Part shown: piece by piece, positions 1,741-64,000 of the stretch | How positions within the stretch are numbered: position 1 is the stretch's first letter | Layout of the letters: each line of letters starts with the position of its first letter | Source of the DNA: a bacterium | GTDB taxonomy: Bacteria; Omnitrophota; Gorgyraeia; Duberdicusellales; 4484-171 | DNA: 64,000 bases | Direction: 5' to 3' | NCBI GenBank assembly: GCA_021796115.1 | Contig: JAJYOP010000005.1 | Span: 13,039-77,038 of the forward strand | Notes under the pieces: model-generated | The model's database searches: none | Told to the model about the DNA's origin: nothing | The model's input: the letters and a program-made list of their open reading frames with translations, nothing else | Program-made: the position numbers and the translations under genes

Positions 1741-2081
1741 GCAGAAATGTAAGCTCTGAATACGGCAAGATAAAGATACACCGGAGAGTGATAATCCAGG
1801 TAGCGGAAACAGCCGCCAGGCAAGTAAAAGGCGTTGAGGCTGTGGGGTGGGAATGCTACGGCTGGCTTGGCCCAATTTTGAAATTTTTTAACTGGGCAGG
1901 CACACGGGTTAAATTCGAAAATGAAATTAAAATAGTGCTTCCTGTGATAATTTTTTGGGAAGTAAACATCGTAGATGTTGCCTACGAAGTGCAGAAAAAA
2001 GTTATTACGCACATGCTTAATGGTCTGAATATCGATTCTGTAAGCGTAGATGTAAAAGTTAAAAAAGTAAAGAGGGGGTAG
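1737..2081 (+). CDS. Asp23/Gls24-family alkaline shock protein
   Basis: YGKIKIHRRVIIQVAETAARQVKGV resembles the Asp23-family N-terminus; GTGA overlap with the accC stop. Confidence 0.6.
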   Translation: MSRNVSSEYGKIKIHRRVIIQVAETAARQVKGVEAVGWECYGWLGPILKFFNWAGTRVKFENEIKIVLPVIIFWEVNIVDVAYEVQKKVITHMLNGLNIDSVSVDVKVKKVKRG

Positions 2082-2083
2082 AG

Positions 2084-2668
2084 ATGGCTTTTCTTACTAT
2101 AATTGCCTATGTGGCGGTTTCTTTCTTCGTCGGCTGCGTTTTTATAGGATTGTCTCTCGATTGGGTTGATATAAATTATGCGATAAGTTACTTTCAGCAT
2201 AAAATAATGTCGGTTTGGCCTTTACGTGCGGCATTTGGCCTTACCGGTTTATTGATTATTCTTTTATGCCTGCGCCATCTTTTTCGGACAATTTTCAGAA
2301 GAGAACGCTCCGTGGTTACAGAATCTTCGTATGGAAAGGTAAGCATTACTCTTTTTGCCATAGAAGATATGTTAAGGAATATGCTTGAGAGCGAAAGTGG
2401 CTTATCACATGTGCGCCCAAGAATCATTTGTAAAAAACACCGGATAGAGGTAATAATCAGAGGTAATTTAAACGCTGAAGCGAATTTGCCGGTTTTTACG
2501 AAAAATATTCAGGAGAAAACAAGGGAAAAACTTCAAAATCTTTTAGGCGAAGACAAAGAGATCAGGATAAAAATTGAAATACGAAAAATGGTTTTTAAAG
2601 GCAAGAAAAAGATAATCGAAAGCCCGGAAGAAGTTACGGAAGCGGAAATACCGTACAGATATTATTAA
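2084..2668 (+). CDS. Membrane protein, possible AmaP-like anchor for Asp23
   Basis: Two N-terminal TM helices, about 190 aa, immediately downstream of the Asp23-family gene. Confidence 0.4.
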   Translation: MAFLTIIAYVAVSFFVGCVFIGLSLDWVDINYAISYFQHKIMSVWPLRAAFGLTGLLIILLCLRHLFRTIFRRERSVVTESSYGKVSITLFAIEDMLRNMLESESGLSHVRPRIICKKHRIEVIIRGNLNAEANLPVFTKNIQEKTREKLQNLLGEDKEIRIKIEIRKMVFKGKKKIIESPEEVTEAEIPYRYY

Positions 2669-2770
2669 TCAAATGAAGCAGCAATTTTCAAGCCTAGACT
2701 GCCCGAAGAGCAGCCCAACAGGGCGTCCTGGTGGACAGGCATGGCGCAGAAAATTTGCGTAGCTGAATTT

Positions 2771-2879
2771 GACCCCCACACCAACTTTTGTTTTTATGTT
2801 GAATGTGGCTCATTGGATTGTTTCGCAAGCATATTTTTGTTAAAACAAAAACATTCTTTCAAAAGTTGGTGTGGGGGTT
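2771..2879. promoter_or_regulatory. Inverted repeat of 19 of 20 bp (gacccccacaccaacttttg / caaaagttggtgtgggggtt) upstream of pfk
   Basis: Arms at 2771-2790 and 2860-2879, 69 nt apart. An inner hairpin tttttgttaaaacaaaaa lies at about 2835-2852 and a second hairpin ataacttacgc..gcgtaagttat at about 2898-2937. Confidence 0.5.
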
Positions 2880-2960
2880 AATTCACAGACGCTTCGCTAT
2901 AACTTACGCTCGTTTTGGCAAACTCGCGTAAGTTATCTGTTCATTAAAGGAGGTTTCGCA

Positions 2961-3986
2961 ATGAAGTTAGGTGTTCTCACTGGAGGCGGGGATTGCCCTG
3001 GCCTAAATCCCGTAATACGCGCCGTAGTAAGATCAGCCATTAACGATGAAACGGAAGTGGTTGGCATAAAAAATGGCTGGAAGGGTTTACTTGAAAAAGA
3101 TTATATGCCACTTGATCTAAGATCAATTTCCGGCATTCTTCCTAAAGGCGGCACGATTCTTGGGACTTCCCGCACGAATCCTTATAAAAAAGAAAATGGC
3201 TTAGAAATCGTAAAGAAAAATTTCAAAGAATTAAAATTGAATGCCCTGGTTGCCATCGGCGGAGAAGATACTCTCGGTGTGGCAACTAAGCTTTTTAAAG
3301 ACGGCCTTTATACTGTCGGTGTGCCGAAAACCATAGATAATGATTTAGGCGCAACGGATTTTACTTTTGGTTTCGATACCGCGATCAATATTGTTATGGA
3401 ATGTATTGACCGGCTTCATACAACTGCAGAGTCGCACAATAGAATTATGGTTGTAGAAGTTATGGGCCGGCATGCCGGTTGGATTGCCGCCTACTCTGGT
3501 ATCGCCGGAGGAGCAGATTATATTCTTGTCCCGGAAATTCCGATTGATGTTGATGAACTATGCGATTCGATACAGAAGCGTCATAAACGAGGCAAAAATT
3601 TCAGCATCGTCGTTGTTTCGGAAGGAGCAGCTTTTAACGATGCTTCACTTTTTACTCAGGAACAAAAACTCGATGAGTTTGGCCATGTTCGCCTTGGCGG
3701 GATAGGGGATACCTTAGGTAAACTAATCGAAGAAAAAACCGGCTATGAAACAAGAGTTACGGTTTTAGGCCACATTCAAAGAGGCGGTTCGCCTACGGCA
3801 TTTGACAGGGTGCTGGCCACTCGTTTTGGCGTAAAAGCATACGAATTAGTGAAAAACAAGGAATTCGGTAAAATGGTAAGCTTAAAAGGAACCGAAATAG
3901 TGGCGGTTCCGCTTGAAGAAGCAACCAAAGCCCTCAAAACACTTGATTTACGGCTTTACGATCTAGCCAAGATATTTTTTGGATGA
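2961..3986 (+). CDS. pfkA: 6-phosphofructokinase, PfkA family (Asp/Lys signature suggests a PPi-dependent enzyme)
   Basis: MKLGVLTGGGDCPGLN, GGEDT, PKTIDNDL and MGRHAGW motifs. RBS aaaggagg precedes the ATG at 2961. Confidence 0.9.
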   Translation: MKLGVLTGGGDCPGLNPVIRAVVRSAINDETEVVGIKNGWKGLLEKDYMPLDLRSISGILPKGGTILGTSRTNPYKKENGLEIVKKNFKELKLNALVAIGGEDTLGVATKLFKDGLYTVGVPKTIDNDLGATDFTFGFDTAINIVMECIDRLHTTAESHNRIMVVEVMGRHAGWIAAYSGIAGGADYILVPEIPIDVDELCDSIQKRHKRGKNFSIVVVSEGAAFNDASLFTQEQKLDEFGHVRLGGIGDTLGKLIEEKTGYETRVTVLGHIQRGGSPTAFDRVLATRFGVKAYELVKNKEFGKMVSLKGTEIVAVPLEEATKALKTLDLRLYDLAKIFFG

Positions 3987-56761: not shown

Positions 56762-57640
56762 TCATGCCCGGGGATGTGCTTTCGCGTAAACTTTCTTAAG
56801 CCCATCTATAGTAAGATGTGTATACACTTGAGTTGTTGATATACTTGAATGCCCCAGTAATTCCTGTACGCTTCTTAAATCCGCGCCTCTATTCAAAAGG
56901 TGAGTAGCAAACGAATGCCGGAATGTGTGTGGCGATACTTTCAGTGATATTGCCGCCTGTTTTATGTATTTTTCAATAATAACCCGAACGCCCCTGTCTG
57001 TTAATCCTTTGTTCTGCTTGTTTATGAATAGCGATTGGCACTTATCGTTACGCGTATCCAGGTATTTTTTTAAAGCCAATATCGCCGGTTCGCCCAAAGG
57101 AAGAAGCCGTTCTTTCCTGCCCTTACCCATAACCTTTGCTATCCCGCTTATCAAATCAACATCATTTATTTTAAGTGAGACTAATTCGGATACTCGCGCG
57201 CCGGTTGAATATAAGACTTCCAATATTGCTTTATCGCGTAAAGCGAGCAAGCTTTCGGGTTTAGGAAGGCTGATAATATTCAAAACTTCGCTTTCGGTTA
57301 GAAAATTGGGAAGATTTTTTTCAAGGCGCGGATAGATTAATGAAACTGCCGGGTTATTTTTGATCTCCCCCTCCTTTATCATAAATTTAAAAAAGCTTTT
57401 TAAGGTGGAAATCTTGCGCGAAATGCTGCGTTTATTTAGATTTTTCTCAGAAAGCGTTGCTAAAAATTTACGTAATACAAAATAATCTATTTCTTTTATG
57501 TCAATTTGGCCGGCCCGATTGAGGAATGTTTCGAATTCTTTAAGATCAATCTCATAATTAATGCCGGTATACTGCGAGTAGTTTTTTTCAATATTAAGGT
57601 AATTTAGGAATTTTTCTATGTAATACGAAAAAGGAACCAT
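56762..57640 (-). CDS. xerC: Tyrosine recombinase XerC/XerD
   Basis: SAM-like N-domain; catalytic ARVSE, HTFRHSFATHLL, LLGHSSISTTQVYTH. Confidence 0.85.
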   Translation of the reverse strand: MVPFSYYIEKFLNYLNIEKNYSQYTGINYEIDLKEFETFLNRAGQIDIKEIDYFVLRKFLATLSEKNLNKRSISRKISTLKSFFKFMIKEGEIKNNPAVSLIYPRLEKNLPNFLTESEVLNIISLPKPESLLALRDKAILEVLYSTGARVSELVSLKINDVDLISGIAKVMGKGRKERLLPLGEPAILALKKYLDTRNDKCQSLFINKQNKGLTDRGVRVIIEKYIKQAAISLKVSPHTFRHSFATHLLNRGADLRSVQELLGHSSISTTQVYTHLTIDGLKKVYAKAHPRA

Positions 57641-57654
57641 ATCTTGGTTTAATT

Positions 57655-59673
57655 TTAACTATCAGTTTGACTTGGTTGTTGCTCATTATCGATTTCCGGC
57701 CCGTTATTAACATTATTATTTGTATTATTTTGTTCTCCGCCTTCCGGTAAATTTCGGCTTGTGTAACGGCATTCCGGAAATTTTGAACAACCATAAAAAT
57801 GTTGGCCCCGTTTATTACGGCGCTCGATTAATTTTCCAACCTTGCATTGCGGGCAAGTTACCTCGGTGGTAATACTTTCGGCGTAACGGCATTGGGGGAA
57901 TTTCGAACAACTCAAGAAACGTCCTTTTCTCGACCATTTAACAACCAGCGGGCTTTGGCATTGCGGGCAATTTCTTCCGGAAAACTCAACTTCTTTTGTG
58001 ATTAGACTGGTAGCATTGTCGATTTTTTCTTTAAAAGAAGGGAAAAAACCGGAAAGGACACTGTGCCATTCCATTTTTCCTTCCTCGACCTCATCGAGCT
58101 TCTCTTCCATTGAAGCGGTAAAATCTTCATTTATAATTTCGTTGAAATATTTATCCAGAAGGTCGCTTACCTTTATGCCTAAGGCGGTAGGTACGAAATA
58201 TCCTCGCTCCCGGCGCATGTAATTTCTTTTAACCAGCGTATATATAATTGGCGCGTATGTTGATGGCCGGCCGATGCCTTTTTCTTCAAGGATTTTTACC
58301 AAAGACGCATCGTTAAAGCGTGCTGGTGGTTTTGTGGTATGCTCAACCACTTCGCAATCAATAAAGGCAAGTTCCTGGTTTAACGCCAATGGCGGAAGTT
58401 TTATATCTTCATCGTCTCGGCCATAAACTCTAAGGTAACCGTCAAAGACCATACGTTTGGCTTCGGCAATAAATTCCGCAGAGACAGAAGCGATTACTGC
58501 TTTTGTATTTTCGAAAATTGCGGCACGCATACGGGATGCGGTAAATCGTTTCCATACCAGCTCATATAAACGTGCTTCATCTTCGGATAGAAACATGATG
58601 ATTGTTCCTGGTTCACGGATAACACTACTCGGGCGTATCGCTTCATGGGCCAATTGCGCCATCTTTTTTGCTTTATGTTTGTGTTCTTTTTCGGGGATAT
58701 AATTTTCTCCGAAGTTTTTTATGATGAATTCATTAGCTTCTTCCTTTGCGCGGTTACTTATGGCAAAGGAATCGGTACGCATGTAAGTGATAAGGCCGAC
58801 CATAGTTTCGTTAATTTGAATACCTTCATAAAGTTTTTGCGCTATCATCATCGTCCGCTGCGAAGAGAAATGCAGTTTATTAAATGCATCCTGTTGAAGC
58901 AGGGATGTGATAAATGGTGATGGCGGGTTGCGTTTTGATTCTTTTTTTATGATTTCTTTGACCAGAAAAGCCTGTTTTTTGATTTCTTCTTTTATCCGGT
59001 CTGCTTCTTCCCGAGTTTCGAAAATTGCCTTTTTACCGTGATATTTTTCAAGTTTTGCGTTAAAAACTGCATCATTAGCGCGAAATTTTGCTTCGATGGT
59101 ATATGTTTTTTTTGAAATAAAGCTGTTTATTTCTTTCTCGCGGTCAACAATAAATTTTAGCGCTATGGATTGCACCCTTCCCGCCGAAAGGCCGCGCACG
59201 ATTTTTTTCCAAAGAAGCGGTGAAAGGTAATAACCAACAATCCTATCCAATACTCTGCGGGCGGTTTGGGAGTTTATTTTATTGATATCGAATTCTTCAG
59301 GCTTAGCAAAAGCATCTTTCAGCGCTTCTTCGGTTATTTCGTGGAAAATAACGCGTTTAAAAGTATCTGCATCTTCGGCGAGTTTTTCTTTAATGTTCCA
59401 GCCTATCGCTTCTCCTTCCCTGTCAGGGTCGGTTGCGATAAAGACTACTTCTTTTTTCTTTGCGCTTTTTTTGAGTTGTTTTATTATTTTTTCTTTGCCG
59501 GGGATTACTCTGTAATTAGGCTGGAAGTTATTTTCTATGTCTACAGACAGGCGACTCGACGGCAAATCTATTACATGCCCCATCGAAGATGTTACTTCGT
59601 AATCTTTCCCTAAAATGGCATGGATTGTTTTTGCTTTCGTCGGAGATTCGACTATCACAAGATATTTACTCAT
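57655..59673 (-). CDS. topA: DNA topoisomerase I
   Basis: MSKYLVIVESPTKAKTI Toprim N-terminus, Tyr-domain motifs, C-terminal CPxC zinc ribbons. ATG at 59673 is preferred over the TTG at 59688. Confidence 0.95.
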   Translation of the reverse strand: MSKYLVIVESPTKAKTIHAILGKDYEVTSSMGHVIDLPSSRLSVDIENNFQPNYRVIPGKEKIIKQLKKSAKKKEVVFIATDPDREGEAIGWNIKEKLAEDADTFKRVIFHEITEEALKDAFAKPEEFDINKINSQTARRVLDRIVGYYLSPLLWKKIVRGLSAGRVQSIALKFIVDREKEINSFISKKTYTIEAKFRANDAVFNAKLEKYHGKKAIFETREEADRIKEEIKKQAFLVKEIIKKESKRNPPSPFITSLLQQDAFNKLHFSSQRTMMIAQKLYEGIQINETMVGLITYMRTDSFAISNRAKEEANEFIIKNFGENYIPEKEHKHKAKKMAQLAHEAIRPSSVIREPGTIIMFLSEDEARLYELVWKRFTASRMRAAIFENTKAVIASVSAEFIAEAKRMVFDGYLRVYGRDDEDIKLPPLALNQELAFIDCEVVEHTTKPPARFNDASLVKILEEKGIGRPSTYAPIIYTLVKRNYMRRERGYFVPTALGIKVSDLLDKYFNEIINEDFTASMEEKLDEVEEGKMEWHSVLSGFFPSFKEKIDNATSLITKEVEFSGRNCPQCQSPLVVKWSRKGRFLSCSKFPQCRYAESITTEVTCPQCKVGKLIERRNKRGQHFYGCSKFPECRYTSRNLPEGGEQNNTNNNVNNGPEIDNEQQPSQTDS

Positions 59674-59674
59674 C

Positions 59675-60030
59675 TTAACACTTGGCAAAACATGAAGGGG
59701 TGATCTCCCGGATTAACCCATTCAATTGAAGGTTGAGTATTATTTTATTTATAACCGGCTGTGCAAAATTGCTTTTTAGAATTATTTCTTCAAGATGTGT
59801 TCCATCGCTTTCGATCATTTCGAAAACGACCCTTTCCTCACCCTTTAACGTTATTGGGCTCTCTTTTTCGTTGGTTGCTTCAAATTTTATATTTAACTCG
59901 TCTAATATATCGGTAATCGAATCGACTAATTTCGCCCCTTCTTTAATCAAGATGTGCGTACCTTTACTTAACGGCGAATTGACTTTACCGGGGAGCGCAA
60001 ATACTTCCCGGTTCTGACTCACTGCAAATG
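59675..60030 (-). pseudogene. dprA: 3' fragment of dprA (end of the Rossmann domain plus C-terminal winged helix), separated from its 5' part
   Basis: AVSQNREVFALPGKVNSPLSKGTHILIKEGAKLV matches the DprA 'REVFAVPG..G.N.LI..GA' region. Similarity stops at about 60030. Conserved dprA-topA synteny. Confidence 0.7.
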
Positions 60031-61640
60031 AATTCATACGGTTTATCCTGCTCGCCTGCCGGAGAATCAAGAATGGTTATTATATCAACATCACCATTCT
60101 TGTAAACAATTACCTTGTCTAAAGCATCTCTAAGTAATTGCTGTTTCTCTTTTTGGCTAAAATTATCTATATTACCCTTAATGGTCGAAAGGTTGGCTAA
60201 CTTCTGTTCTTTTATGTTACTACCTGCTATCTGTAGTCTTAAACTGTTTATTTCCCCTTGAATACGGGATTTCCTAAACTTTATCTTAGGCATCTGCTTT
60301 TTAAGGTCTTCTTGTGTTAAGTCTCCCATAGAAAAAGCATCCAATAGCCTATCCTCTGCCTTAATTAAACCATCAAGCTGTTTATCTAACTCCTTAAGTC
60401 TATCCGGAATAATCTCTTTCGCTTTGCTTAACTCCTTCTGTTTTATGCGTATAGTCTCATCTAAGGCTTTTTGGGGTTGCTTAACCAAATATTCTATGGC
60501 TTTCCAGACCTTGCTGTCTATCTCTTGCGTTTTTAGATAAGGCAAGGCGCAGTCTTTCTTGACTCTACCATAGCATTTATAATAGCTGGCTGTCTTCCAC
60601 CGTTTAATCAAATAACCCCTCTTGTCCCTTATAAGATTGCCATCCTTATCTTTTTTTTCATAGGCCTTGAAGGTCGCTCCCTGTAACTTGCTTTCGCACT
60701 CCGCACAATACAATAAACCGGATAAAAGATATTCGTTCTTAGTATTCCTATCAGCCCATTTCGCCCTGTTCTTTATGTTATCCTGAGCCGTCTTGAACTC
60801 TTCATATGATATAATCGGCTCCACTGTTTGCTTAATCCATTCGCTTTCCGGTCTTCTGCCTATGGTCTTGCCATTTTTGTGTTCTACCTTGTTATAATTG
60901 TAAACTCCGTAGTATATAGGATTAGTGAGTAATCTCCAAACAACCCCACCTGTCCAAGAGCCTATCTTAAAACCCTTGCCTTTATATGAACCTTTCTTCT
61001 CCGCAAACTCTAAAGGTGTTGGTATTTTATTTCGATTAAGGTATTCTGCAATTGCAACTGTGCCTAAGTTCTGCGCATTGCAAAGTTCAAAGATTTTCTT
61101 TATAACCTCAGCCTCTTCCTGCACAATGCAAAGTTTCTTCGTAGTCTTATCGTATTTGTAGCCAAGCCTAAAATGGTTACCAATATAAACCCCCCTGGTA
61201 ACCGCCTCAAGAGAACCTCGTTTCATACGCTTAAGTAATTTTTTCTTCTCTCTCTTCGCCAAAGCACCAAATAAGTCTGAAAGAAAATCATCCTCATCAT
61301 CACTTAAATCATAGGTCTGATTAGGAGTAGCTATCTTAATCTTATTATCCCTAAAGGTCTTCTTTATGGTAAGCCAATCAAATAAATCCTCATCTCTTGA
61401 AAGACGCTCAAGCTCTATAACAAGACAAACGTCAAACTTCTTTGCCTTTGCGTCCCCTAAAAGCCTCATTATCTGAGGCCGGTTCTCTAAGGTTTCCCCT
61501 GAGCCTGCACCCTCGTTATAAAAAATATAATCCCACTCTTTAGTCTTAGCATACTCAACAAGAATTTTTTCTTGAGCTGGAAGACTAAACTTCTCTCTTT
61601 GTCTCTCTGTAGAAACTCTTATATAGATTGCGCAGGTCAT
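59985..61640 (-). CDS. Large serine recombinase (resolvase catalytic domain, recombinase domain, zinc ribbon, coiled coil)
   Basis: CAIYIRVSTERQ catalytic Ser motif, LERLSRD, CAECESKL..YYKC zinc ribbon, long coiled coil. The 3' end runs across the junction into dprA sequence. Confidence 0.9.
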   Translation of the reverse strand: MTCAIYIRVSTERQREKFSLPAQEKILVEYAKTKEWDYIFYNEGAGSGETLENRPQIMRLLGDAKAKKFDVCLVIELERLSRDEDLFDWLTIKKTFRDNKIKIATPNQTYDLSDDEDDFLSDLFGALAKREKKKLLKRMKRGSLEAVTRGVYIGNHFRLGYKYDKTTKKLCIVQEEAEVIKKIFELCNAQNLGTVAIAEYLNRNKIPTPLEFAEKKGSYKGKGFKIGSWTGGVVWRLLTNPIYYGVYNYNKVEHKNGKTIGRRPESEWIKQTVEPIISYEEFKTAQDNIKNRAKWADRNTKNEYLLSGLLYCAECESKLQGATFKAYEKKDKDGNLIRDKRGYLIKRWKTASYYKCYGRVKKDCALPYLKTQEIDSKVWKAIEYLVKQPQKALDETIRIKQKELSKAKEIIPDRLKELDKQLDGLIKAEDRLLDAFSMGDLTQEDLKKQMPKIKFRKSRIQGEINSLRLQIAGSNIKEQKLANLSTIKGNIDNFSQKEKQQLLRDALDKVIVYKNGDVDIITILDSPAGEQDKPYEFICSESEPGSICAPR

Positions 61641-61647
61641 TTCTTTT

Positions 61648-62517
61648 TTAAGATATTCGCCCATTAAAGAATTTTTCACTCAATTTATTTAAAATATTAT
61701 CTGTTTTTTCTTTCCCGCCACAAAAAGTAGGCTCTCTCGCTATTGTTATGAATGGTGCTCTCTGAATCAACTTATTTAAGAATTTCTTACCAGACCATCC
61801 AGCTGTAGTATGATAATTACTAATTACATCAAATTCATCATGATAAAAACGCTCATCCCAAATATAATGACCTCTCGAACAGTAAAAAGTAAAATAGTCT
61901 AAATCGAAGTCAAGCAAAATAGGCTCTTTATTCATAGTAGCAGTTCTTCCTTTAGAACCTAAATACCAACCTATAATATCTCGAGTCGGTTTAAATAATT
62001 CTTCATGATAGTTATTACCAAGTATTTTTTTAGAATCGAAAACACCCTTTAACATTCCTATATTCTTAAATTGATGCGTCTTCTCATCTACATCCACATA
62101 ACCTTCTTCAATATACTTTTTAAAATCACTATTTGCATTTCCTCCAATCAAAACTGCATCCTTGACAATCGCCAAATCCATCAACACCTTAAGCCAAGTA
62201 TCGTTTGATTTTCTTATCCCGCCATTTTGAGTAATTTCAAAAGCTTCTTCAAAGCTTTTTGTTTTTTTAAGAATTTTGATTGCTGCTTTAAACTTCTCGT
62301 CCCTATCTTCTTTTTGGTCATTTGCATCATGATGCTGGTCAAAATAGACCATATTAAGCGGACACTTTATCATACCAATTGATTTAGCCAGCCATAAAAT
62401 AGGCACAATAAACCTATGGTCATCATAAACAATTACAGATTTGCCATTAAAATCATAATGGCTATAATAATCGCTATTTTTAATGACTGTTAAAAACATA
62501 TCTATTGGTTGACTCAT
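61648..62517 (-). CDS. UPF0489-like protein (arginase/deacetylase-fold family), function unknown
   Basis: VIVYDDHRFIVPILW..MVYFDQHHDAN and ILLDFDLDYFTF resemble UPF0489 signature blocks. ATGA overlap with the upstream HTH gene. Confidence 0.5.
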   Translation of the reverse strand: MSQPIDMFLTVIKNSDYYSHYDFNGKSVIVYDDHRFIVPILWLAKSIGMIKCPLNMVYFDQHHDANDQKEDRDEKFKAAIKILKKTKSFEEAFEITQNGGIRKSNDTWLKVLMDLAIVKDAVLIGGNANSDFKKYIEEGYVDVDEKTHQFKNIGMLKGVFDSKKILGNNYHEELFKPTRDIIGWYLGSKGRTATMNKEPILLDFDLDYFTFYCSRGHYIWDERFYHDEFDVISNYHTTAGWSGKKFLNKLIQRAPFITIAREPTFCGGKEKTDNILNKLSEKFFNGRIS

Positions 62518-62690
62518 CTTCCCGTTATCCTCTTCAACTTCTTTAAATCTTCTTCTGTCCAATATCTATATCCGGACATAGGGTCTCTTTTGGCCTTTGG
62601 GATTTTCTTAGCCTCTTCCCAGAGATATAAGGTTTTTCTGGATATATCTAAGATTTTAATTACTTCGGAAATACGATAGCGTTTTTGCAT
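62514..62690 (-). CDS. MerR/excisionase-type HTH protein (58 aa, absent from the ORF track)
   Basis: Hand translation gives MQKRYRISEVIKILDISRKTLYLWEEAKKIPKAKRDPMSGYRYWTEEDLKKLKRITGR. Confidence 0.6.
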   Translation of the reverse strand: MQKRYRISEVIKILDISRKTLYLWEEAKKIPKAKRDPMSGYRYWTEEDLKKLKRITGR

Positions 62691-62692
62691 AT

Positions 62693-63922
62693 TTATTTTT
62701 CTCTCCCAGAAGCTTTTTTAAGTTTTTCAATAAATTCAGAGTCAACCTTATACCCTAAGCTCTCAGCTTTATGCATATCATCCCAAGATTTATTGTAGTC
62801 TTTATTATAGAAATATGCGGCCCCTCTGTTATAGTAAACGCCGCCATTGTTAGGATTAAGCTCTATTGCCTTATCGCACTCGATAATAGCCTGGTCGTAT
62901 CTACCTGTATTAAGATAAGCATAACTTAACCCAGCATAAGCATCTGTATATTTAGGATTTATTTCAATGGCTTTGATAAAATCAGAAATAGCTTGGTCAT
63001 AGTTGTTCTTATCATTATAAGCGTTTCCTCTGCTATAGTAAGCAACACCATTGTTAGGATTAATTTCTATTGCCTTGTTGTAATCTAAAATGGCTTGGTA
63101 GTCGTTGCCTTTACGCTTATAAGTAAATCCTCGGAGCAAGTAAGCGGCGTCGTTATTAGTATTAATTTCTATCGCCTGGTTGTAATATATGATAGCTAAA
63201 TCATAGTATCCTTTGGCAGAAGAATCGTAGCCTTTTTGCAATAGGTCTTTATAGTGGTCTACATTTGAGAAGTTATTTTGCTGCTCGTTAGCTATGCCAT
63301 TATGTTGAACCTCTATTGATTTAGAATAATAAGCAGAATGAAAAACAAGCCAAACTAACCATGCGATAAAAATAAAACCAAGAACTAAACGCATAGAACC
63401 TAAAATCTTTTGTTTATTTTCTATTCCTTTCTCTAAAACTTTATTTAACAGATAAATGGCGGCAAGAACGAAAGCTATCCCGCGCAAGGCTGGGAATACC
63501 ATTATTCCTATAATGCCTAAAGTCCACCATAAAGCAGTATTATTTTTCTTCTCTTGAGTTGTAGACGTTGAGCTCTTTCGCTGTGAATCACTTTGTTTAT
63601 ACTTATTATTATTTTCAGAACTATAACTTTCTTGATGAGCTTTGCTTTCGTTTTGAGAATAATCATATTTTTGATAAGTATTGTAAGTATTAGAATATCC
63701 TTGGGAATAATCATACTGTCTTCTTTTATAAGGGTCGCTTAACACCTCATAAGCTTCGGAAATCTCCTTAAACTTTTCCTCTGCCAAATCAGATAAAGGA
63801 TTATTGGGATGTTTGTCTGGATGGTATTTCAAGGCTAATTTTCGGTAAACTCTCTTTATTTCTTCTTCTGTAGCTGTCTTAGAAACACCTAAAATTTTAT
63901 AGTAATCTTTTTTTATAGCCAT
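62693..63922 (-). CDS. J-domain protein with two TM helices and C-terminal TPR repeats
   Basis: [20 protein letters not shown] (HPD motif). A low-complexity linker and hydrophobic segments. At least four AIEINPNN-type TPR repeats. Confidence 0.8.
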
Positions 63923-64000
63923 ACTTGATTCCCGCCAAGATGATGAAACTAGTCATTTTTCTTTGTAAAAGTTATCATAACACAATCTTTTCCATTTATT

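Follow-up and report, generated by a model that had tools for sequence, protein, structure and literature searches.

Genes at the split dprA locus

DprA is universally used to load RecA onto incoming DNA. In the 64,000-nucleotide stretch of Omnitrophota DNA analysed here (contig JAJYOP010000005.1, in the following called the window), its gene dprA is present only as a 3' part, and this part is joined to the end of a gene for a large serine recombinase (LSR). The best explanation of the locus is a 13,284-bp integrative element that was inserted into dprA of this Candidatus Omnitrophota by its own LSR through site-specific recombination, and a probability of about 0.9 is given to this reading. 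All features described below are on the minus strand of the window, where the gene order is DnaJ/TPR gene, helix-turn-helix (HTH) gene, a gene for a protein of 289 or 304 aa, LSR gene, dprA 3' part, topA and xerC. An earlier reading of the window, made from the sequence only, had described a dprA gene split beside topA by an element with an LSR at the junction. The genes and domains identified on the minus strand agree with that description.

The host-derived part of dprA (59675..60002) consists of the last 108 codons, which correspond to codons 250-357 of a 357-aa DprA, starting with FALPGKVNSPLSKG and running to the stop codon. Encoded by these codons are the last part of the Rossmann-fold domain and the complete segment after it with the winged-helix domain, and they align seamlessly with the intact orthologues P0001-P0005. 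The fragment is contained in an open reading frame (ORF) of 131 aa (60070..59675), which matches Pfam DNA_processg_A at positions 175-211 of 212 as well as DprA_WH. That only the last codons of dprA remain had been seen correctly in the sequence-only reading, which gave their number as about 115. The LSR gene extends from 61664 to 59985 (61664..59985, 559 aa) if it starts at an ATG, or from 61679 (61679..59985, 564 aa) if it starts at a GTG. The host gene topA (57655..59658, Topoisom_bac 3.5e-121) is located directly downstream of the dprA 3' part and has come to stand behind the LSR operon of the element. The order dprA, topA, xerC, kdtA, lpxK and a lipid A acyltransferase gene (window 56762-60070) is kept across divergent Omnitrophota, as observed at the loci L021, L023 and L030.

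The 5' half of dprA and the reconstructed insertion site

The DnaJ/TPR protein was used to find a further sequence, L001, which is part of a 287.5-kb ENA/NCBI contig. L001 and L027 were found to be the same contig as the window (0 mismatches over 11,308 nt), and L001 extends the window by 9.9 kb. Codons 1-249 of dprA were also found on this contig, oriented like the 3' part and at a distance of exactly 13,284 bp upstream of it. The sequence-only reading had proposed to search for the 5' half of dprA and a second attachment (att) site past position 64000, and both were indeed found 13.3 kb away. About 4 kb of the element are inside the window, and the element runs 9.3 kb past the window edge to attL. 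A 7-bp core, GGGAAGT, is identical at both ends, at L001 630-636 for attL and at L001 13914-13920 for attR. Comparison of both junctions placed the attR core at 60003..60009 in the window, where it reads ACTTCCC on the plus strand. The size of 13,284 bp was calculated from the two core positions. No direct repeats longer than the 7-bp core flank the element. On the attL side the product P0016 has 282 aa, consisting of DprA residues 1-249 and 33 unrelated element-encoded residues, and the element arm following the dprA 5' half contains CCAATTTATATCGC.

When the left side of attL was joined to the right side of attR, the sequence HYALEQSREV/FALPGKVNSPLSKG was obtained, that is ALEQSREV/FALPGK with the slash at the junction. 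The rejoined DprA has 357 aa and can be aligned without gaps to intact 357-aa Omnitrophota DprA at 76-81% identity. The motif Q-x-R-E-V at the junction is invariant in the rejoined and intact DprA proteins aligned, and neither half of dprA contains a frameshift, a stop or an indel. The reconstructed attB of the studied host contains TTGAGCAAAGCAGGGAAGTATTTGCGCTCCCC, the reconstructed attP of the element contains GAGTCAGAACCGGGAAGTCCAATTTATATCGC, and attB in an intact relative reads CAGAACAGGGAAGTGTTTGCC. A comparison with relatives that have an intact dprA had also been suggested; their genes encode 357 aa and are located directly upstream of topA with the same left flank.

In the relative with P0003 (L003/L004), dprA is intact and is followed directly by topA. 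The left flank, with genes for GH72, PagL, an acetyltransferase, an acyl-CoA dehydrogenase and shikimate kinase followed by dprA, is identical in this relative and in L027, and the right flank of the studied contig carries topA, xerC, kdtA and lpxK. The event at dprA is a simple insertion. As expected of a split gene, both halves are co-oriented, their joining gives a full-length orthologue, and the uninterrupted site is present in a syntenic relative. An assembly chimera, or a native gene fission with a short C-terminal DprA ORF as the normal state, could be suspected, as the sequence originates from a metagenome assembly and several related contigs break inside the element. Such an origin is highly improbable. 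The attR junction is present in independent assemblies (ENA and Logan), P0016 was found on 3 contigs, and about 20 loci from different samples have the same junction. Furthermore, relatives have an intact 357-aa dprA in the same synteny, and a short C-terminal DprA ORF is therefore not the native state of the locus. The 64-kb window contains no second dprA, and these outcomes are in line with the sequence-only reading.

The recombinase and its attachment site

The LSR contains the domains PF00239 Resolvase (3.8e-28, residues 17-164), PF07508 Recombinase (2.9e-19) and PF13408 Zn_ribbon_recom (2.6e-06). Its predicted catalytic serine is located in the motif IYIRVSTERQ, a weak coiled-coil match was observed at residues 399-481, and the protein matches the PHROG 95 integrase at 2.6e-95. 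Of the features of a serine integrase, a catalytic domain, a C-terminal recombinase domain with zinc ribbon, and a short core without long repeats were present. The LSR is predicted to recombine attP with attB, and to carry out excision together with a directionality factor. Intragenic integration mediated by an LSR, as already proposed from the window, is supported by the position of the LSR at the junction both here and at about 20 related loci.

The element also encodes a tyrosine integrase (L001 4111-5031) with a Phage_integrase domain, and this enzyme instead of the LSR might have made the insertion. Hardly any weight is given to this explanation, since the gene is in a mid-element position between the small and large terminase genes (L001 3555-6891) and was not found in the recovered, incomplete parts of other family elements. 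Long direct repeats are also missing around the element. The LSR gene, in contrast, adjoins the junction at every locus and holds the conserved att arm. The placement of the tyrosine integrase gene suggests a mosaic or nested origin of the element.

The element-side arm of attR, which corresponds to the left arm of attP (60010..60055), is located within the last 15 or so codons of the LSR gene. Its translation in the frame of dprA is FAVSQNREV, an imitation of the dprA motif. The junction had earlier been placed at about 60030, which did not hold; the core is at 60003-60009, and these approximately nine codons are element DNA. The arm CAGAACCGGGAAGT is closer to the consensus dprA sequence than the host's own CAAAGCAGGGAAGT, and the arm sequence GTATGAATTGGTTTGCAATGAGTCAGG is kept across the family loci. 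The LSR genes of 12 family members were aligned by codon to determine the synonymous-site entropy. Over the full length of the gene, the entropy of third codon positions is lowest at codons 541-550, with 0.16-0.29 compared to a mean of 0.74, and these codons are positioned immediately upstream of the core. Such a minimum is the pattern expected of a protein-binding DNA site that overlaps a coding region, and it gives independent support to the assignment of the att site.

The LSR gene ends 18 nt past the core, and its last five codons and the stop codon (ICAPR-stop) are supplied by dprA DNA of the host, translated here in a different frame. The sequence-only reading was right that the tail crosses the junction in another frame, but the roughly 15 codons that it counted are those overlapping the DprA-like sequence, and only five and the stop are beyond the core. 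In the excised circle, as derived from the junction sequences, the LSR would end with EPGS-PIYIAKTLQENSRIRKVTIRIPANTAR and a stop codon. The C-terminal tail accordingly changes from 24 element-encoded residues before integration to 5 host-encoded residues after integration, a switch that might also help in the control of directionality. The host-encoded tail itself is unlikely to be essential, because the tails vary in both length and sequence among the family loci.

On the host side, the crossover is within the codons for the conserved motif E-Q-x-R-E-V/F-A-L-P-G. Conservation was ranked using 96 full-length Omnitrophota DprA proteins, and LEQSREVFALPG was found to be the second most conserved 12-residue block of DprA (4th of 346 windows). 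The junction corresponds approximately to residue 244/245 of chain 3UQZ, the solved DprA of S. pneumoniae, and is inside the Rossmann-fold domain.

Cargo and type of the element

The genes upstream of the LSR gene are co-directional with it. A 58-aa MerR/HTH_17 protein with an excisionase-type helix-turn-helix (62690..62514, MerR_1 1.5e-08, HTH_17 1.5e-06) has homologues, 65-83% identical, close upstream of the LSR in most family members (L005, L006, L009-L012, L014, L016, L018, L022, L023 and L030). It is a candidate for a regulator or for the recombination directionality factor. A 289-aa protein (62517..61648; 304 aa from a TTG at 62562) is encoded between the HTH and LSR genes, and no significant match was obtained for it with Pfam, PHROG, PADLOC or NCBIfam. 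This protein is absent where the HTH gene directly adjoins the LSR, which is the case in at least 8 relatives (L005, L006, L009-L012, L018, L022). The J-domain/TPR and HTH genes named in the sequence-only reading were recovered, but its UPF0489-like label for the 289/304-aa protein is not supported, as the sole Pfam match (E = 0.89) scored 10.4 bits where the cut-off is 27. The 409-aa DnaJ/TPR protein (63922..62693, DnaJ 1.1e-28, TPR_1 6.6e-30) is cargo of the element, and inspection of its sequence by eye revealed hydrophobic segments that are probably membrane-spanning. A gene for a 163-aa protein is cut at the window edge, and only its 3' end is inside (63949..64000).

Besides the DnaJ/TPR protein, the cargo of the complete element includes small and large terminase subunits, the tyrosine integrase, an Ada-type zinc-binding protein and a Nuc/NucT-like nuclease of the PLD family. 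The nuclease (182 aa, L001 7251-7799) matches PLDc_2 at 3.8e-34; its NucT/Nuc NCBIfam match of 2.4e-20 is below the cut-off. The N-terminus is hydrophobic and, as judged by eye, is probably a secretion signal. DNases encoded by mobile genetic elements (MGEs) are a known means of blocking transformation, and the nuclease could act jointly with the disruption of dprA. No capsid, portal, tail or lysis genes were detected in the 13.3-kb element with PHROGs, Pfam and NCBIfam, several small ORFs being outside the PHROG scan. The phage-type genes are restricted to the terminase subunits and integrases, which is less than a complete prophage has. The size, the small terminase gene (present in L030 too) and the lack of structural genes fit a phage satellite similar to the phage-inducible chromosomal islands (PICI). 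The large terminase is atypical for a PICI-like satellite, and no replication gene was identified in the element.

A family of dprA-targeting recombinases

Homologues of the LSR were collected from GTDB genome scans, JGI metagenome scans and LSR homologue look-ups. This gave about 20 loci at which DNA downstream of the LSR gene was available, with LSRs 38-85% identical to the studied one. Every one of these LSR genes is followed by a dprA 3' fragment (from residue ~239-241) and topA, and usually by xerC. Most of the family LSRs are 70-85% identical to the studied LSR. TopA of the family hosts is only 47-63% identical to the studied TopA, and the DprA fragments 31-59%. Because the LSR is far less diverged than the surrounding housekeeping genes, the sequences indicate a horizontal spread of the LSR among divergent Omnitrophota.

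The recurrent part of the family elements is the small HTH gene together with the LSR gene, and the cargo differs from locus to locus. L009 carries a patatin phospholipase and a SMODS/DncV-like nucleotidyltransferase (1775-3677), a pair of the anti-phage type known as CBASS (cyclic-oligonucleotide-based anti-phage signalling system), in addition to an HNH protein, a response regulator and a Rep_O replication protein. DnaB and Rep_O are encoded in L023 and L025, and a TerS-like gene and a small resolvase in L030. The 10-kb flanks of L030 and other loci do not extend to attL. A second complete element was sought through a neighbouring protein of L009, and this candidate was dropped, as its homologues were found in unrelated defence islands.

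L005, L006, L007, L021, L022 and several short metagenome contigs end inside or beside the element, in some cases in the LSR gene itself or at most 1.3 kb upstream of it. These ends suggest strain heterogeneity or repeated sequence in the metagenome assemblies. L006 (CAYSSS010000077.1) is labelled 'uncultured Planctomycetia', yet it has the order LSR, dprA 3' part, topA, xerC and a junction matching that of L012, and its bin label is possibly incorrect. Among the best 120 DprA matches, one was cut at the insertion site, and most Omnitrophota DprA proteins were recovered intact. DprA matches of 285-305 aa (P0089, P0102, P0115 and others) are intact at the insertion motif and are without the winged-helix domain. 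They were rejected as further split genes, as the FALPG motif is present and only the winged-helix domain is missing, and they appear to be a natural short form. For annotation it follows that a 'short' or 'partial' DprA beside topA in metagenome-assembled genomes of Omnitrophota can be the product of an insertion, and that the element is the likely cause of contig breaks at the dprA-topA locus.

Probable consequences of the insertion for DprA and its host

The crossover within the 7-bp core splits dprA into 249 codons extended by 33 element codons and, beside topA, 108 codons. DprA is expected to be non-functional for as long as the element is integrated, as the end of the Rossmann fold and the winged-helix domain are detached. 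The 282-aa fragment is most probably inactive, because the junction is inside the Rossmann fold and because the detached segment contributes to dimerisation and to the interaction with RecA. Precise excision by the LSR, probably together with a directionality factor, would restore an intact dprA. The use of an ultra-conserved target motif would give the element a broad host range, and the knock-out of DprA may shield the element from deletion by transformation-driven recombination.

A strong, near-consensus promoter-like site within the last part of the LSR gene faces the dprA 3' part and topA (60079..60106; TTTACA, a 16-nt spacer and TG-TATAAT, 11/12 matches, with an extended -10). From the LSR gene to topA, no terminator-like site was found on the minus strand. 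Judged from these signals, topA may now be transcribed from the element, and the promoter-like site could keep up topA expression after the insertion. Additional constraint on this site (60106..60079) was considered and rejected, as its synonymous-site entropy is approximately the gene average.

Several points weigh against the insertion reading or limit it. A second dprA could be present elsewhere in the genome, as about 80 kb of the 287-kb contig were examined. No excised circle, attP junction or intact dprA allele of the same species was found in the assemblies, and the best intact DprA found is 81% identical. The viral contigs of IMG/VR did not contain relatives of the LSR, the conserved attP arm or the reconstructed attP. 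Both ends were recovered for this element alone, and for the other family members only the attR side. Inverted-repeat symmetry in attB and attP gives no clear centre at which the crossover dinucleotide could be placed. The meaning of DprA loss for the fitness of Omnitrophota is speculative.

The undamaged dprA halves fit a recent insertion and a reversible insertion alike. In the latter case the element would be a regulated intervening element, a switch of the type of skin/sigK, SPbeta/spsM or the Listeria comK phage, by which the host gates transformation or recombination through excision. An intact LSR, a small HTH_17-type gene near the LSR in most family members as a possible directionality factor, and the recurrence of the arrangement across the phylum are consistent with such a switch. 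However, the cargo is highly variable and of a selfish type (terminases, CBASS, replication genes), only the one DprA among the best 120 matches was cut at the site, the attB and attP forms are missing from the assemblies, and a recent insertion accounts for the intact halves equally well. A host-controlled switch is consequently regarded as unlikely.

With the insertion attributed to a mobile element and its LSR, further readings concern the choice of dprA as target. The coding sequence for EQxREVFALPG could be a neutral safe harbour, a landing pad at which the loss of DprA is tolerated and blocked transformation brings no benefit. DprA is also common among bacteria for which no competence is known. 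The high conservation rank of the target block and the range of hosts over which the LSR clade is spread (47-63% TopA identity) fit this explanation as well. It is less easily reconciled with the availability of other ultra-conserved sites, such as tRNA genes, that can be used without destruction of a gene, or with the NucT/Nuc-like PLD nuclease and its probable secretion signal. Moreover, repeated targeting of competence genes by MGEs is documented (PMC12378983; PMC4774983). The safe harbour is considered a real possibility at somewhat below an even chance. Alternatively, the LSR could represent a phylum-wide Omnitrophota clade specialised in DprA knock-out against transformation-mediated curing, reinforced in the present element by the probably secreted Nuc/NucT-like nuclease. 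This proposal is tentative and is held to be rather doubtful. If true, it implies that transformation is active and ecologically important in uncultivated, ultra-small Omnitrophota.

Comparison with known systems

The coherent LSR clade (38-100% identity), with its highly conserved attB and one reconstructed attB/attP pair, is useful for the study of broad host range, and its members are candidate orthogonal integrases. The architecture of the studied LSR resembles that of the Ccr recombinases of SCCmec and of XisF of the Anabaena fdxN element, and weak CcrC/CcrB/XisF NCBIfam matches (E 4e-30 to 4e-24) were obtained. With 105 bits against a cut-off of 900, the studied LSR is not a member of these subfamilies, and the target sites are different.

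A close parallel is provided by the comK prophages of Listeria monocytogenes (A118/phi10403S), which integrate by an LSR within comK (PMC3556126; PMC12378983). Both cases consist of an LSR element within the coding sequence of a competence gene, which precise excision would restore. In the present case the target is dprA, the gene of a RecA loader and not of a regulator, and the host belongs to the uncultivated Omnitrophota. The element also differs in having 13.3 kb with terminase genes and no detected capsid or tail genes, and its excision is predicted from sequence. Similar to SPbeta/spsM (SprA-SprB) and skin/sigK (SpoIVCA) of B. subtilis, the LSR gene is located at the end of the element and the gene halves are intact; in these systems a small accessory protein sets the directionality (PMC5499854). 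Unlike in SPbeta and skin, the cargo varies between family members, and neither a developmental programme nor a directionality factor under host control is known for the present element. Judged by its varying cargo, the element is more likely to be mobile than domesticated.

MGEs have been described in other competence genes, namely AbaR and other islands in comM and prophages in comYC, comFA, comGA and ssbB, and these insertions have been interpreted as a way for the element to avoid being cured by transformation (PMC4774983; PMC12378983; PMC11441513). The ecological pattern is shared with the dprA insertion, whereas the recombinase families, the hosts and the target differ. A 2025 review lists comYC, comC, comGA, pilB, pilQ, comFA, comEC, ssbB, comM, comK, yjbK and scr as targets, and dprA is not included (PMC12378983). 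The full-text literature searched, which excludes most subscription-journal papers, contained no report of an integration into dprA. The sequence-only reading had likewise not recognised dprA as a described target, and the literature searched and the review are in agreement with this. With dprA, the most widespread transformation gene joins the competence genes that are hit by site-specific elements, and the pattern now includes an uncultivated phylum. This supports the notion that mobile elements and transformation are in general conflict. Integration by a serine recombinase into a competence gene is thus of a known kind, and what is added by the present locus is the target dprA, the family-wide specificity for it and the uncultivated host phylum.

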